DNA of 64,000 nucleotides from Lachnospiraceae bacterium (GTDB lineage: Bacteria > Bacillota > Clostridia > Lachnospirales > Lachnospiraceae), in contig JALEWG010000139.1 in NCBI GenBank assembly GCA_022788065.1, forward strand, positions 145 through 64,144, read 5' to 3'. The notes beneath the pieces were generated by a model. It was given only the letters and a program-made list of their open reading frames with translations. It was not told where the DNA came from and did not search any database. The translations under genes were made by a program, and so were the position numbers. Of this stretch, positions 40,163 to 58,001 are shown piece by piece (within the stretch, counting starts at the first letter, position 1; each line of letters begins with the position of its first letter).

Positions 40163-40236
40163 ACATTATTTTCTCCACTTTCTTACACTATATCGAAAAA
40201 AGGTTTTAATACCCGCAATTTTAACGATACCACATC

Positions 40237-40265
40237 ATTATAGTTTGAGTTTCCCCATATGGCAA
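40237..40265 (-). promoter_or_regulatory. Promoter TTGCCA-17-TATAAT for ftsH
   Basis: -35 at 40265-60, -10 at 40242-37 on the minus strand. Confidence 0.55.
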
Positions 40266-40293
40266 TAAAAAAAATATTAATTTTAGCTTTTCT

Positions 40294-40322
40294 TTGACAA
40301 ATTAAATTTTTTCTGCGATACT
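40294..40322 (+). promoter_or_regulatory. Promoter TTGACA-17-GATACT for the small ORF / radical SAM pair
   Basis: -35 at 40294-99, -10 at 40317-22. Confidence 0.5.
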
Positions 40323-40389
40323 CTACTTGCAGTTCTTTCCCTGTATGATTTCCCTGTACCTGCAGATACTTGTTATCGGGGTGATTTTT

Positions 40390-40593
40390 ATGGAACCGAT
40401 TTCAGAAGCGGGAAAAGAGATCAGAAAGGACTGCGGCTATCACATCGATGACCTGGATATCCAGTCCTGCTCGGCCATGGACTGCACCGGGCTCATACCG
40501 TCTCTGCCGGTTTCGGATGCCGAGATCGAGCACTATAACCAGCTGTACCGGTTCATTCCGGATCAGATCACAGGCCCGGAAACCCGGGACTGA
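40390..40593 (+). CDS. Small acidic Cys-containing hypothetical protein (67 aa)
   Basis: ATG at 40390 follows GGGGTGA. Third-position G+C resembles neighbouring genes. Translation MEPISEAGKEIRKDCGYHIDDLDIQSCSAMDCTGLIPSLPVSDAEIEHYNQLYRFIPDQITGPETRD. No family recognised. Confidence 0.5.
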   Translation: MEPISEAGKEIRKDCGYHIDDLDIQSCSAMDCTGLIPSLPVSDAEIEHYNQLYRFIPDQITGPETRD

Positions 40594-40637
40594 ATGCCGC
40601 GGGCCGCTTAGGCGGCCTGCTTTTCGGAGGTTTCACC

Positions 40638-41540
40638 TTGAATTATACATATGACTGCTGTACCTTATGTCCGAGAATGTGCGGCGCGGACCGTCACAGA
40701 TCCTCCGGTTTCTGCGGCGCCGGCGACAAAATAAAAGTTGCCCGCGCGGCTCTTCACCACTGGGAGGAACCGTGTATCAGCGGTACCCGCGGCAGCGGAA
40801 CCGTCTTTTTTTCCGGCTGCACCTTGAAATGTGTTTTCTGTCAGAACCATACGCTGAGCCATGATAACTTCGGGAAGGAGATCTCTGTAAAACGTCTGTC
40901 AGAAATCTTTCTGGAGCTTCAGGCGCAGGGTGCACACAATATTAATCTGGTCACGGCCACCCATTATCTTCCTTCTGTGCGGGAAGCTCTGAACCTTGCG
41001 GGGCCGGCCTTAAAAATCCCCGTCGTCCTGAACTGCGGGGGCTACGAGCGTGTCGAAACACTTAAAGAGTATTCCGACTGCATCGACATCTATCTGCCTG
41101 ATCTGAAATATTATGACGGCAGTCTGTCCCGGAAATATTCCGCGGCAGAAAATTACTTTTCCGTCGCCTCAGCCGCAATTCAGGAAATGATCCGGCTCAC
41201 CGGCGGCCTCACGTGGGATCCCGAAAATCCTTCTCTCTTAAAAAAGGGCGTGATCATCCGCCATATGGTTCTTCCGGGCGCAAAAGCGGACTCCATCCGG
41301 CTTTTACACTGGATGCGGGACACGCTCCCGCAGGGAAGCTATCTCCTGAGCCTGATGAGTCAGTATACGCCTTTTTACAAGAGCTATATCTATCCGGAGA
41401 TCAGCCGCAGGATCACGACCTACGAATATGAAAAGGTTCTGGATGAAGCGATCCGCCTGGGGCTCATAAACGGTTATATGCAGGAAAAAAGCAGTGCGAA
41501 AGAAGAATACACTCCGCCCTTTGATCTGAGCGGTGTTTAG
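40638..41540 (+). CDS. Radical SAM protein, PflX-like (COG1313-type), TTG start
   Basis: GCTLKCVFCQN (CxxxCxxC) plus N-terminal Cys cluster CCTLCPRMC. About 300 aa, no SPASM-like C-terminal Cys cluster. GGAGG lies 8 nt upstream of the TTG. Confidence 0.8.
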   Translation: MNYTYDCCTLCPRMCGADRHRSSGFCGAGDKIKVARAALHHWEEPCISGTRGSGTVFFSGCTLKCVFCQNHTLSHDNFGKEISVKRLSEIFLELQAQGAHNINLVTATHYLPSVREALNLAGPALKIPVVLNCGGYERVETLKEYSDCIDIYLPDLKYYDGSLSRKYSAAENYFSVASAAIQEMIRLTGGLTWDPENPSLLKKGVIIRHMVLPGAKADSIRLLHWMRDTLPQGSYLLSLMSQYTPFYKSYIYPEISRRITTYEYEKVLDEAIRLGLINGYMQEKSSAKEEYTPPFDLSGV

Positions 41541-41582
41541 ATCCGGACATGGCCGGTGAAGACGGGATTCAGACAAAATTAT

Positions 41583-41624
41583 AGTGGGTATCGAAAATAT
41601 CTTTTTATTTTTCCGATACCCACT
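41583..41624. terminator. Perfect 11-bp hairpin AGTGGGTATCG...CGATACCCACT; possible terminator for the radical SAM gene (+) and for the island transcript (-)
   Basis: Arms at 41583-93 and 41614-24. With a one-nt bulge the stem extends by AAAA/TTTT. T-rich sequence lies 3' on the plus strand. Confidence 0.55.
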
Positions 41625-41986
41625 TTACATTTCGATGTCCAATGGATTTACCTCTCTTTATTTAGTTTTTAATCTATATGTAATTTTCTGTCTCACTCGA
41701 CCGGTTTTCCTGAATTTTATTTTTTCTTTTCTTTTTCATATCGATTATTGTATTTTCTTATCTATACTTTCTCGTCATATCTATAAGGAATATCAGATAA
41801 TCTTTTTATTCTTTATTATTCCGGTGTCTGTGTTTTTCCTTTGTTTAGACTTTTAATTCTTTATTTTTAAAAGCTAAACGAAACTTACGTGTTCGGTGGT
41901 TTGTACCTCCTTTACTTAGATTTTTTTGTTTTTCGTCATTCTCATTTGACTTTTCCTTTTTTTCTCTCTTTGTTTTTGTTGTCTTT

Positions 41987-42015
41987 ATTATATTCGAATA
42001 CTTCCGTTTTGTCAA
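41987..42015 (-). promoter_or_regulatory. Perfect consensus promoter TTGACA-17-TATAAT firing into an ORF-less AT-rich island
   Basis: Minus strand: -35 at 42015-42010, -10 at 41992-41987, spacer exactly 17 nt. Confidence 0.6.
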
Positions 42016-42092
42016 TACCTTTTTTGCATAAATTTTAATTTTATTTTTTATTATCTATAAATTTTCAAATTGTATGTAATTATTCAAACTTT

Positions 42093-42752
42093 TTATTCGT
42101 TTTCTCTTTTCCGGATCAGGAGGAACAGCAGGACAGCCGTTCCGACCGCCATGAGAAACAGGTCGGAATAGATGCCGCAGACCTTCTCCACCTTCTCCCA
42201 GGAATCGCCTGCAGCCCGACCGAGGAGCACCAGAACCGTATTCCAGATCAGACTTCCCGAAACTGTGAGGAGCAGAAATGGTCCCATCGACATCCCGGCC
42301 ATACCTGCCGGTATGGAGATCAGGCTGCGCACAATAGGAACCAGCCTGCATAAGAACACAGCCACCCGACCTTTTTTCGCAAACCAGCCGGATGCGGTAC
42401 GGATATCCTCCGGATCAAACCGGAGCACTCTTCCAAGCGGACCGGAAACAAGCCGCTCCAGCTTCTCAGCAGACAGAAGACAGCCCGCCAGATATAAAAT
42501 TACCGCGCCCAGAACGGATCCGGCAGTGGCCGCTGCCACGACTCCGCAAACCGTAAGGCCCGTGGCAGCCGTCATGGCGCCTCCCACAGTCAGGATCACC
42601 TCCGACGGGACAGGCGGAAACAGATTTTCAATCAAAATAAGGAGGAATACAGCGATATTCCCGTATTCCTCCAGAAATAGAAGGATCGCATCCCGCATAC
42701 GGCACTCCGTTTCGTTTTCTGGATACCATTCTATGCGGCGATCTCTCCCCAT
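42093..42752 (-). CDS. DedA family membrane protein (start 42752 or 42698)
   Basis: IENLFPPVPSEVIL motif typical of DedA/SNARE-associated proteins. Confidence 0.85.
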   Translation of the reverse strand: MGRDRRIEWYPENETECRMRDAILLFLEEYGNIAVFLLILIENLFPPVPSEVILTVGGAMTAATGLTVCGVVAAATAGSVLGAVILYLAGCLLSAEKLERLVSGPLGRVLRFDPEDIRTASGWFAKKGRVAVFLCRLVPIVRSLISIPAGMAGMSMGPFLLLTVSGSLIWNTVLVLLGRAAGDSWEKVEKVCGIYSDLFLMAVGTAVLLFLLIRKRENE

Positions 42753-55670: not shown

Positions 55671-56264
55671 TCACCTGCTCTTTGCTCCCCTCATGGAATC
55701 GACCGCAGGGAGCAGTCTTCTGGCGAGGAATGCAGCCAGCACACAGAGGACGAAATCCTCTCCCACCGTCAGAAGAAAGCAGTTAATAAACACCAGTTTC
55801 CAGCCCACAGACACGCCAAGAATGTAGTTGCTGCAGACATAGAAATAAATCATTCCGCAGGCGTAATCGGCAAGAAGACCAACGGTACACGCAAGAAGCA
55901 GTGCCGGAAAGTTCCTCTTTCCGATCTTTTCATAGACGAGCCCCGTGAGGAATCCGGCAGCCGCAAACCCGATCAGAAAGCCGAAGGTCGGTTTTAACAG
56001 ATAAGCGGGACCGCCGCCCGTCGCAAAGACGGGAACGCCGCAGAGCCCGATGACCAGATACGTACAGACGCTGGCCAGGGAACCTTTCGCACCAAGGATC
56101 AGCGCCGACAGCAGCACAAAAAAGAACTGCAGCGTAAAATGCATGGGCACAGGCTGCACGGGGATCGTGATCTTAACGAACGCACCGACAGCGATCAGTG
56201 CCGAAAACAGCCCGGAAAAGGCCAGTTCCTGGATACTCCACGGTTTGCGATGTTCTCTTTTCAT
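55671..56264 (-). CDS. bioY: Biotin transporter BioY (ECF S component)
   Basis: ITIPVQPVPMHFTLQFFFVLLSALILG...GGPAYLLKPTFGFLIGF pattern. The start overlaps the proS stop by 1 nt. Confidence 0.9.
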   Translation of the reverse strand: MKREHRKPWSIQELAFSGLFSALIAVGAFVKITIPVQPVPMHFTLQFFFVLLSALILGAKGSLASVCTYLVIGLCGVPVFATGGGPAYLLKPTFGFLIGFAAAGFLTGLVYEKIGKRNFPALLLACTVGLLADYACGMIYFYVCSNYILGVSVGWKLVFINCFLLTVGEDFVLCVLAAFLARRLLPAVDSMRGAKSR

Positions 56265-57697
56265 TAATATGCCTTACCCCAATATACCATCTTTGCCGCA
56301 GGCTTTCCGCAGCATACGCATGTATCCGCAATCTTCTCCTGCTTAAACGGCATGCATCTGGAAGTTACGCCGACTGTTTCCTTTAACTTGTCCTCGCACT
56401 CCTGGCAGCCGCACCACATGGCGCGGATGAAGCCCGGCTTATTGTCGGCGATATCCTTCATCTCTTCCATATTGTGAGCATCGTAGGTGTGCGCATCGCG
56501 GTGTGCCTTTGCGCGCTCAAACATGTCCTTCTGGATCGTGTCGAGGAGTTCACCTACCTTCTCTGCAATCTCGGAGAGGGCAACTGTGATCTTCTCGTGG
56601 GTATCACGGCGAACCAGTACGGCCTGGCCTGCCTCGATGTCCTTCGGTCCCAGTTCAATACGAACCGGGATTCCGCGCATCTCGGACTCGCTGAACTTCC
56701 AGCCCGGGCTCTTGTCAGAATCGTCCACCTTCACACGGAAATTGGACAGAACCTCTTCCACCTCACGTGCCTTTTCCAGCACGCCTGCCTGCTGCTGGCG
56801 GATCGGAACGATCACAACCTGTGTCGGAGCTACCTTCGGCGGGAGCACAAGACCCTCGTTGTCGCCGTGAACCATGATGATCGCGCCGATCAGACGGGTA
56901 GTCATTCCCCAGGAAGTCTGATGAACATATTTTAACTGGTTATCTCTGTCGGAATACTGGATGCCAAATGCCTTCGCGAAACCGTCGCCGAAGTTGTGGC
57001 TGGTGCCGGACTGCAGTGCCTTTCCGTCATGCATCAGAGCCTCGATCGTGTAGGTTGCCTCCGCGCCCGCAAATTTTTCCTTGTCTGTCTTCTGTCCGCG
57101 TACGACCGGCATTGCCAGAAAATCCTCACAGAAATCCGCGTACAGGTTTAACATCTGGATCGTACGCTCCTGGGCCTGCTCCGCAGTGGCATGAGCGGTA
57201 TGGCCCTCCTGCCACAGGAACTCTCTGGAACGCAGGAACGGCCTTGTGGTTTTCTCCCATCTGACAACGGAGCACCACTGGTTATATACCTTCGGGAGGT
57301 CACGGTAGGACTGGATATCTCTCGCATAGAAATCACAGAACAGTGTCTCAGAAGTCGGTCTTACGCAGAGACGCTCCTGAAGCGGCTCCAGACCGCCATG
57401 GGTCACCCATGCAACCTCCGGCGCAAATCCCTCCACATGGTCCTTCTCTTTTTCCAGAAGGCTCTCCGGGATAAATAACGGCATGTAAACGTTTTTTACA
57501 CCTGTTTCCTTGAATCTTCTGTCCAGTTCATTCTGGATATTCTCCCAAATCGCATATCCATCCGGTTTGATCACCATGCAGCCCTTTACGCTGGCATAAT
57601 CCACCAGCTCGGCTTTCTTTACAACGTCCGTGTACCACTGGGCGAAATCTTCCTCCATGGAAGTGATCGCCTCAACCATTTTTTTGTCTTTCGCCAT
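56264..57697 (-). CDS. proS: Proline--tRNA ligase (archaeal/eukaryote-like short form)
   Basis: [17 protein letters not shown]..., class II motifs, and C-terminal zinc-type Cys (CGCQEC...CVCCG). Confidence 0.95.
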
Positions 57698-57730: not shown

Positions 57731-58001
57731 AAAAAAGGCTGATGATCCCGAAAGGGACCGTCAGCCGGCGTTACCACCCAATTTAGCATTCCCGCCATCA
57801 CGGGAAGCTCTCCTCTTTTTCCTTTAACGCAGGAATACGCTGTGCTTATCAGGATCCGCTTCACACAAGACTCCGGGGCCGGTTCAACCGTGCGCACATG
57901 GAGAGTTGCACCTCCCTCTCCTCTCTGGAATGCCGCCTTCGCTTACTTTTCCCTTTCAGTGTCTTTCTCATTATTGCCTGTTTGATGATTGCTCATACAT
58001 A
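57731..58001 (-). promoter_or_regulatory. T-box riboswitch leader of proS (candidate specifier CCG) with terminator
   Basis: Minus-strand T-box core TGGGTGGTAACGCCGG (57779-57765). The terminator GGCTGA..TCCC-TTTC-GGGA..TCAGCC + T6 is at 57766-57731. Stem I elements are AAGTA ... CAGAGAG ... GAA-CCG-G, with CCG at 57882-57880. Confidence 0.8.

Follow-up and report, generated by a model that had tools for sequence, protein, structure and literature searches.

The stretch of DNA analysed here, called the window throughout, comprises 64 kb of a contig from a Lachnospiraceae bacterium (JALEWG010000139.1). In this window a radical SAM gene and a DedA/VTT gene (dedA) converge on a gap that surpasses all other gaps between large open reading frames (ORFs) of the window, both in length and in AT content. 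Its GC content is 0.28 and its plus-strand T content 0.50, vs. a GC content of 0.52 for the window. The subject of this report is a conserved element on the minus strand of the gap, which extends from a promoter on the dedA side to an intrinsic terminator on the radical SAM side. Its features are as follows.

40638-41540, plus strand: radical SAM gene (PF04055)
41541-42092: gap between the stop codons of the radical SAM and DedA/VTT genes, 552 bp
42093-42752, minus strand: DedA/VTT gene (PF09335; UptA-like in NCBIfam, below the cut-off)
42060-42088, minus strand: conserved upstream box TTTGAATAATTACATACAATTTGAAAATT, about -80 to -108 from the predicted transcript start
41987-42015, minus strand: sigma-A-type promoter, TTGACA at 42015-42010, 17 nt, TATAAT at 41992-41987, with A/T-rich UP-like DNA immediately upstream
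41573-41980, minus strand: predicted transcript, about 408 nt (A 52%, G 17%, U 20%, C 11%)
41962-41980, minus strand: conserved A/G-rich 5' end AACAAAAACAAAGAGAGAA, from alignments
41924-41961, minus strand: variable stretch rich in indels (alignment gaps and insertions), holding the MRMTKNKKI mini-ORF
41895-41923, minus strand: module 1, near-invariant AAAUCUAAGUAAAGGAGGUAC, with the Shine-Dalgarno (SD)-like core AAAGGAGGU at 41913-41905
41843-41879, minus strand: hairpin H1 (GUUUAGCUUUUAA ... UUAAAAGUCUAAAC), -9.3 kcal/mol, z = -4.6
41832-41844, minus strand: conserved single-stranded linker ACAAAGGAAAAAC, core AGGA[A/C]AA
41694-41832, minus strand: central domain, closed by a predicted long-range helix of CACAGACACCGG (41832-41821) with CCGGUCGAGUG (41704-41694)
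41743-41802, minus strand: hairpin H2, with the invariant 11-nt loop UGACGAGAAAG (41777-41767)
41673-41681, minus strand: conserved motif ACAUAUAGA, from alignments
41648-41657, minus strand: SD of module 2, AGAGAGGUAA, with 8 nt from GAGG to the start codon
41625-41642, minus strand: five-codon ORF UUG GAC AUC GAA AUG UAA (fM-D-I-E-M)
41573-41624, minus strand: intrinsic terminator, stem 41624-41614 with 41593-41583, then AUAAUUUUGU; -21.8 kcal/mol, z = -6.7

A sequence-only reading of the window had singled out the gap as an ORF-less, G+C-poor island between two inward-facing stop codons about 550 bp apart. All of the items it listed were found again where it had placed them, and the observation holds to the base: a recount of 41641-42060 (420 nt) gave the same 107 G+C, a recount of 41701-41760 the same 37 T and 9 A, and the minus-strand promoter and the hairpin at 41624-41583 are present as described. 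That reading left two alternatives, namely an undescribed A-rich noncoding RNA or micro-peptide locus running from the promoter to the hairpin, and a decayed low-G+C insertion.

Conservation of the island and of its promoter

Ten contigs with an identical radical SAM protein belong to the same species (DNA more than 99.6% identical), and none of the ten has a gene call inside the island. Among species-representative genomes, the nearest relatives of the radical SAM protein are just 79% identical. The order ftsH / radical SAM / gap / dedA is kept in these relatives, and in every case the gap is similar in kind, with a length of 513-723 bp, a GC content of 0.28-0.37 and a T content of 0.42-0.48. 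When the gaps were aligned on the minus strand, long near-identical blocks were found in common. A profile made from this alignment detected the element in about 30 of 80 genome loci. Independently, metagenome contigs were scanned with a 21-nt pattern taken from the most conserved block, which gave 120 loci, and a scan of viral contigs added one more; the profile recovers the element in 105 of these 121 loci. The total stands at 146 fetched loci with the element (115 full length; 58 clusters at 95% identity). There is one copy per locus, and the extra matches on the opposite strand stem from the palindromic terminator only.

The element has a nucleotide identity of 74-81% to the window; for the radical SAM gene and dedA the values are 68-75% and 60-66%. 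A noncoding stretch conserved like its protein-coding neighbours is under purifying selection. Named carriers include Hungatella hathewayi (strain WAL-18680, locus L049), Clostridium fessum (SNUG30386, L045), Pilosibacter fragilis (CSJ-4, L023), Lachnoclostridium sp. An14 and Lachnospiraceae bacterium 45-P1, together with many records labelled Lachnospiraceae; cultured carriers of the element exist. A further 50 loci lack the element downstream of the radical SAM gene; many of these carry the label Oscillospiraceae or a related one. Judged by these sequence matches, the element is a family spread over Lachnospiraceae-type gut Clostridia, with a universal core made up of the promoter, module 1, H1 with its AGGA linker, module 2 and the terminator. 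One further contig (L024, CAVIYT010000167.1) is titled Paludibacteraceae bacterium; it is syntenic with the Pilosibacter/Lachnospiraceae loci, its FtsH is 87% identical to that of the window, and it is probably mis-binned or mislabelled.

The promoter is the first of the core features. As the sequence-only reading had it, the minus strand carries TTGACA and TATAAT 17 nt apart, a match to the consensus at 12 of 12 positions. The exact TTGACA-N17-TATAAT occurs at one site in the 64 kb, and 100 shuffles produced no match. In the 56 clusters in which the region is complete, TTGACA is present in all, TATAAT in 40 (the remainder are one or two positions off) and the 17-nt spacer in 54, while most columns of the spacer are merely 35-56% conserved. 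A pattern of this kind, in which the boxes are kept and the spacer varies freely, marks a working sigma-A promoter. The position of the -10 box puts the predicted start at A 41980, and the 3' end is that expected from the terminator.

Further upstream, the box at 42060-42088 is an imperfect inverted repeat, TTGAATA-N4-TATACAA. Minus-strand alignments show that it is kept whichever gene lies upstream, and it is probably the site of a regulator, as far as its conservation can tell. In distant members (L028, L048, L053) the box appears as a pair of direct TAT(A/G)CACAAA repeats with a spacing of about 16-17 bp; within a species, a change in one repeat is matched in the other. Such paired changes suggest a dedicated transcription factor.

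The second alternative of the sequence-only reading is refuted by this comparison: the island is syntenic, conserved like its flanks, single-copy at each locus and without a phage or plasmid relative. Taken more widely, as a decayed insertion, a pseudogene, a mobile-element scar or a type I toxin locus devoid of RNA function, the explanation could appeal to the aberrant composition and to two hydrophobic plus-strand ORFs of 90 and 49 aa. However, conservation at least equal to that of the flanking genes and compensatory changes in the hairpins (see below) contradict it. We considered the two hydrophobic ORFs as a membrane protein or a type I toxin and rejected them, as their frames are not conserved among relatives. 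The conserved DNA blocks fall in different or fused plus-strand frames in different species, and in one locus (L084) the gap has no ORF of at least 40 aa. Neither multiple copies in the fetched loci nor similarity to phage and plasmid collections (blastn) was detected, and the sole pattern match in a viral contig lacks the element. We give this explanation hardly any credence.

Rfam 15, the collection that the sequence-only reading had proposed to consult, returned only a T-box at 57750-57968 when the whole window was searched at the gathering threshold. With E values up to 10, the island gave chance matches to the terminator hairpin only (9-18 bits vs. cut-offs of 40-130), so that no family matches it, and in 15 relatives no match overlaps the element. 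A tRNA/tmRNA scan found none. On the present sequence evidence, the element is very likely a real RNA gene. It is the first of the two alternatives that the comparison favours: the promoter, the transcript boundaries and the orphan SD are kept in 58 clusters, the hairpins covary, and no known RNA family matches. The study of relatives that the same reading had proposed thus revealed an island that is conserved, syntenic and covarying, without multiple copies.

Two ribosome-binding-site-like modules and the hairpins between them

Module 1 (AAAUCUAAGUAAAGGAGGUAC) is the most conserved block of the family, and the columns of its orphan SD are invariant. The core AAAGGAGGU would be a perfect complement of the anti-SD, judged by the established anti-SD of Firmicutes (the window has no rRNA gene). 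As the sequence-only reading had pointed out, this orphan SD-like sequence (AAAGGAGGT at 41913-41905) is not followed by ATG, GTG or TTG at initiation distance; it is also the sole copy in the window. In the window, an 8-nt spacer separates it from CCG AAC ACG UAA, which has no start codon, and the genuine genes of the window have GGAGG-type SDs at about 7 nt. Across the family, the place of the start codon, 8 nt past GGAGGU, is taken by CCR in 52 of 58 clusters, and CCR-N3-N3-UAA is found in 40 of 58. The exceptions at this place are AUG in L018 and CUG in L019 and L026. The GGAGGU can also pair with a downstream ACCRCC (ACCACC, 41900-41895, in the window).

Several variants of module 1 were noticed. 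In L018 it reads AUG UAC UAG and in L019 and L026 CUG UAC AAU UAA, and L102 has an additional upstream copy, AGAGAGGUACGGACCA-AUG-GGC-UGA. The string AGGUAC-N2-UCCA is common to modules 1 and 2, which may be ancient duplicates of one unit made of an SD, a mini-ORF and a hairpin. A window-wide regular-expression search for further modules of this kind gave just noise within coding regions.

Downstream of module 1, every relative folds a hairpin of 12-15 bp at the position of H1, with a different sequence, and its five basal pairs show compensatory changes. RNAalifold applied to the segment from the SD of module 1 to H1 recovered the base of H1 only, because the inner stems are misaligned. The AGGA linker leads from H1 to the central domain. 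The long-range helix that closes this domain in the minimum-energy fold is weakly supported: its CCGG/CCGG pairs are invariant, and its outer pairs change just in L019 and L026. Within the domain, H2 is much better documented. In 37 distinct sequences, 89% of the cells of H2 are paired, vs. 36-52% in slid controls; 11 of its 13 pairs show compensatory changes, and none of 500 shuffles reaches the observed values. In the species of the window H2 is a weak hairpin (-7.5 kcal/mol).

The terminator had been described in the sequence-only reading as an 11-bp hairpin. It is missing from our terminator scan because an inner mismatch lengthens its loop beyond the limit of the scan. In 31 sequences, 99.7% of its cells are paired, 6 of 11 pairs show compensatory changes, and 17 sequences have a U·G pair. 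The terminator is common to the element and to the convergent radical SAM gene. H2 and the terminator are rich in U·G and G·U pairs, which would turn into A·C mismatches if the plus strand were the one transcribed, so the functional RNA is the minus-strand transcript. The A-rich transcript of the sequence-only reading is borne out in its composition, with 52% A predicted; it is partly structured, and not merely A-rich. The 3' flank of the terminator (CCCACUAUAAUUUUG) contains a second exact TATAAT at 41578-41583 (minus strand), which lacks a -35 partner; most likely it belongs to the U/A tract and is not a promoter.

Module 2 (41657-41625) joins a second SD to a very short ORF and the terminator. 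Its layout is GAGAGGU, 6-9 nt, AUG or UUG, GAY, three codons and a stop, with the terminator stem beginning within 0-3 nt. In the window the stop codon occupies 41627-41625 and the stem starts at the next base, 41624. All 52 clusters whose 3' module could be placed have the SD, with a spacing like that of genuine genes of the window. The TTG-initiated ORF at 41642-41625 had been overlooked in the sequence-only reading. The idea of a micro-peptide put forward there is right in so far as such an ORF exists, but it is neither of the two mini-ORFs named: it is this UUG- or AUG-initiated pentapeptide ORF abutting the terminator. Both of the named mini-ORFs are present in the window, and neither is conserved among relatives. 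MRMTKNKKI sits in the variable stretch rich in indels; MKKKRKNKIQ... changes its frame and length between close relatives and has no SD. We also rejected as coding a third candidate, MTRKY.., whose start lies inside the H2 loop; it is variable in length and again has no SD.

Relatives provided 103 versions of the module 2 ORF, with five codons in 61, six in 18 and ten in 21. The ten-codon group belongs to a lineage that has lost the stop, so that the frame is read through to the loop. The start is ATG or TTG, codon 2 is GAC or GAT, and all three stop codons are used at the same position. Between versions that are one or two bases apart, 53 of 84 differences fall on codon position 3. Of all differences 48-49% are synonymous, where random changes would give 15%; the two shifted frames give 6% and 15%. 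This frame-specific excess argues for constraint at the level of the amino acids, and from its sequence features we regard translation of the pentapeptide ORF as likely. The peptides follow the pattern M-D-[E/N/K/S]-[I/E/V]-[V/A/I/M/F], in which Met-Asp is almost invariant.

This coding signature raises the question of whether the RNA is an mRNA, that is, whether a long, A-rich and stabilised 5' untranslated region (UTR) serves the mass output of a (formyl-)pentapeptide M-D-x-x-x that is itself the active product, be it a signal, a ribosome-acting peptide or a formyl peptide sensed by the host. The conserved SD, start and stop, the near-invariance of Met-Asp and the strength of the promoter would all agree with such a role. 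Residues 3-5, however, diverge widely between lineages (NEM, EIV, EIA, KEF, SIV and NAEH), about 350 nt of conserved and covarying upstream RNA, including an invariant loop, would be superfluous in a plain mRNA, and no gene for export or processing is linked to the element. We therefore rate this explanation as improbable.

Genomic setting, known systems and the proposed role

To place the element among its neighbours we compared the genes on either side of it across loci. The upstream gene varies from locus to locus (dedA, a 2-hydroxyacid dehydrogenase, a glyA-like gene, thioredoxin, MATE and others); it is co-oriented with the element in most loci and divergent in some (L038, L114, L181). 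The downstream gene is mostly the convergent radical SAM gene, also in loci found independently of that gene. Where there is no radical SAM gene, the downstream neighbour either converges on the element or runs in the same direction, and it bears no relation to its counterparts at other loci (MATE, AzlC-like, unknown). A MATE transporter follows in the same orientation in four loci. In the three cases of co-oriented downstream genes that were read, the gene has its own TTGACA-type promoter after the terminator of the element. Because the contexts vary, the downstream genes are convergent or have promoters of their own, and the promoter of the element is invariant, the element is neither the leader of a downstream gene nor a plain 3' UTR of an upstream one. 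By this comparison of sequences, the element is a free-standing gene, with its own promoter and terminator in changing contexts.

A 3' UTR of the upstream gene, dedA in the window, deserves mention all the same, as the upstream gene is co-oriented in most loci and no terminator-like site was found between the dedA stop and the promoter of the element (window 42016-42093, minus strand). Transcription of dedA probably continues into the element as far as the shared terminator. In the divergent loci, and wherever the upstream gene is a different one, the element and its invariant promoter nevertheless persist, and we consider it very improbable that the element is only such a 3' UTR.

Two observations on the neighbourhood may be added. 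In one lineage without the radical SAM gene (L114, 217-921, and L128) the element adjoins a serine-recombinase-like ORF (MCVYGYCRISTKQQSIDRQ...), which hints that the locus can sit beside mobile DNA. In three relatives a 6S RNA gene lies within 1-2 kb of the element (L038, 4674-4853, minus strand; L044, 4603-4781, minus strand; L139, 2038-2214, plus strand), in two of them directly upstream of the radical SAM gene. The element itself was considered as a 6S RNA and rejected, 6S being a separate gene in these relatives. The corresponding gap of the window, between ftsH and the radical SAM gene (40163-40637, 475 bp), gave no 6S match even at E values up to 1.

Among described systems, module 1 is most reminiscent of the STAB-SD in the 5' UTR of Bacillus thuringiensis cry3Aa, which has been proposed to bind 30S subunits and to block 5' decay by ribonucleases (Agaisse & Lereclus 1996, as summarised in PMC12970973). 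The two have in common a strong SD-like sequence (GAAAGGAGG in cry3Aa, AAAGGAGGU in the element) in an untranslated 5' region with no start at initiation distance. The sequence criterion for a STAB-SD is a complement of the anti-SD that is untranslated and has no start codon, and the core of module 1 has all three properties; its stabilising role is that of a candidate only. The element differs in that the single ORF conserved in it is one of five codons, about 260 nt downstream of the SD, and in that the SD can fold on ACCRCC, with the conserved CCR-N3-N3-UAA beyond.

Module 2 resembles the msrDL attenuator. There, the ORF upstream of msrD has six codons (MYLIFM), and an intrinsic terminator fails to form while a ribosome is held at its stop codon (PMC10314930). 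Both systems have a very short ORF of 5-6 codons with its own SD just 5' of an intrinsic terminator, and in both the peptide is under selection. As in the msrDL, ermK and bmrB type of attenuator, a short SD-led ORF overlaps an intrinsic terminator, here one supported by covariation. In contrast to that type, none of the loci examined has a downstream gene of the same unit that would need read-through; the peptides of the element are acidic and mixed, whereas that of msrDL is hydrophobic, and a long, conserved, structured RNA precedes the ORF.

The element could accordingly be taken as a ribosome-dependent attenuator of the msrDL type acting in cis, with read-through passing antisense into the radical SAM gene here, or in the sense direction into downstream genes elsewhere. 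The stop codon that abuts the terminator has the msrDL geometry, the element converges on the same radical SAM gene in most loci, including those found independently of it, and the four co-oriented MATE transporters would be conceivable targets. Yet some loci with the element have no radical SAM gene and place it beside unrelated genes, co-oriented downstream genes have consensus-like promoters of their own past the terminator, there is no conserved regulated gene, and an attenuator has no need of 350 nt of conserved upstream RNA. A device acting purely in cis appears to us quite unlikely.

As background, small RNAs with two functions, one of them residing in a small ORF, include SR1/SR1P of Bacillus subtilis, RNAIII/hld of Staphylococcus aureus and SgrS/SgrT of enterobacteria. 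The element is like these in several respects: it is an autonomous gene that has a promoter and a terminator to itself, its RNA body is structured and bears conserved single-stranded motifs, and it includes a small ORF. Like them it combines an autonomous unit, of predicted transcription, with an ORF under coding selection. It differs from them in the length of its ORF (five codons), which overlaps the footprint of the terminator, in the 52% A of its RNA and in its extra start-less ribosome-binding site (RBS). Neither sequence nor Rfam similarity to RNAs of the SR1, RNAIII or SgrS type was found. The H2 loop UGACGAGAAAG is, from its invariance, a candidate surface for pairing by the RNA body or for binding a protein. 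Of the large structured noncoding RNAs that Rfam lists for Firmicutes, OLE, ROOL, GOLLD and raiA, whose biochemical function is unknown, and 6S RNA, to which this does not apply, share with the element a phylogenetically restricted occurrence and the length class, 400-700 nt in the element family. The element is far less G+C-rich and less densely paired than these RNAs, and none of them matches it.

The likeness to the CsrB/RsmZ sponges is one of architecture, that is, hairpins split by single-stranded A-rich GGA motifs, a strong promoter with an upstream box, and a rho-independent terminator. The element might on this ground be a decoy whose purine-rich, RBS-like motifs titrate a factor that binds such sites in mRNAs, for example CsrA, Hfq or a small RNA that targets SDs. 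Three A-rich GGA contexts are conserved (UAAAGGAGG, ACAAAGGAAAA and CCAAUGGAY), as is an (AG)n tract near the 5' end of the transcript. Genes for small RNAs of the Rsm type carry upstream activator sites, which the conserved upstream box resembles. GGA is, however, not over-represented as it is in the sponges, with 497 occurrences observed vs. 502 expected in 51 RNAs (first-order Markov simulations), and only about three are conserved. Titration would also leave the coding signature of the ORF unexplained. A tblastn search with CsrA and Hfq queries, run against the fetched locus DNA only, gave no match, an uninformative result, and we know of no sponge of the CsrB/RsmZ type in Firmicutes. A role as a sponge thus seems to us a poor prospect.

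The explanation we favour, and hold to be somewhat probable, is that the island is a free-standing gene for a dual-function, ribosome-engaging RNA of about 410 nt, partly structured, in which two RBS-like modules are split by covarying hairpins. What we take as established for this purpose are the conservation, the promoter, the hairpins, the strand of the RNA, the coding signature of the ORF and the autonomy from neighbouring genes. The RNA would be abundant, as can be expected because its consensus promoter has UP-like DNA upstream. 30S subunits would bind at module 1 but not initiate, and would keep the RNA safe from decay in the 5'-to-3' direction, like the STAB-SD of cry3Aa. Ribosomes that start at module 2 would fit just 5' of the stem and translate the pentapeptide ORF; once the stop codon has reached the A site, they would already have melted the 5' arm of the terminator in full. 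The 3' end of the RNA, in the sense either of its stability or of termination vs. read-through, would in this way be coupled to translation. Translation of the ORF would transiently expose the 3' end, so that the lifetime of the RNA, or antisense read-through into the radical SAM gene, is tied to translational activity. We prefer coupling after transcription because there is no conserved downstream gene that needs read-through, and because, unless there is a pause, the transcription of about 65 nt seems to leave too little time for a ribosome to load. The invariant H2 loop and the AGGA linker could be surfaces that act in trans. By analogy with cry3Aa and msrDL, the role as a STAB-SD and the role in translation coupling are both tentative, and we would sooner doubt than assert them.

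Several findings weigh against this model. The promoter, start site and terminator are predictions. The fold-back hairpin at the SD of module 1 is weak (-4.2 kcal/mol, z = -1.35), and it lacks covariation support because every one of its pairs is invariant. Several lineages are without the H2 loop, and neither a target in trans nor a protein partner has been found; a search of the window for the complement of the H2 loop turned up nothing meaningful, the excess of near-matches arising because Asp-Glu-Lys coding is ordinary on the gene-rich strand. The geometry of stop and stem is not absolute, as in two lineages position 6 is no longer a stop codon and the frame continues into the stem. The pairs in the synonymous test are phylogenetically non-independent, although the effect is large and frame-specific. 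No pause site was found, and antitermination during transcription, which would require loading and the translation of five codons in about 65 nt, is kinetically doubtful.

A bolder version of the ribosome-engaging RNA, which we regard as unlikely, is that the family is a new class of translation-sensing riboregulator, an abundant free-standing mimic of an RBS. The start-less SD would park 30S subunits or another RBS-binding factor, the pentapeptide ORF would sense its nascent peptide or the occupancy by ribosomes, and each translating or stalled ribosome would unzip the terminator and so set the lifetime of the RNA or its read-through, including that antisense into the radical SAM gene. If this were true, the RNA would tell the cell how much translational capacity it has, or that a ribosome-targeting compound is present.

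The Lachnospiraceae rank with the most abundant human gut bacteria, and to our knowledge their regulatory RNAs are almost uncharted. The locus defines a widely conserved RNA gene, probably highly expressed, with an unusual trio of features: a perfect RBS without a start, a five-codon ORF under selection at the protein level, and a terminator that a translating ribosome would need to melt. It belongs to an apparently undescribed family of ribosome-engaging dual-function small RNAs. A literature search of incomplete coverage found no earlier description of such an RNA in Lachnospiraceae, which is weak evidence of novelty. If the RNA engages ribosomes, it would offer a tractable system for the study of stabilisation by decoy SDs in Firmicutes, of the functions of pentapeptide ORFs, and of the way in which translation status determines the fate of an RNA. 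The locus further indicates that long, very AT-rich and ORF-less convergent gaps in genomes of medium G+C content can conceal genuine RNA genes that are missed by G+C-based searches for structured RNAs.

Other features of the window

The T-box leader mentioned above (57750-57968, minus strand; RF00230) scored 95.1 bits vs. a gathering score of 93 and lies upstream of a 477-aa ORF (56264-57697). Between ftsH and the radical SAM gene there is a small ORF on the plus strand (40327-40593), of 88 aa when read from a TTG and called as 82 aa in 10 of 10 contigs of the same species. It has no match in NCBIfam, and no Pfam family is recorded for it. The same gap also holds divergent promoter-like sites, at 40265-40237 on the minus strand and at 40294-40322 on the plus strand.

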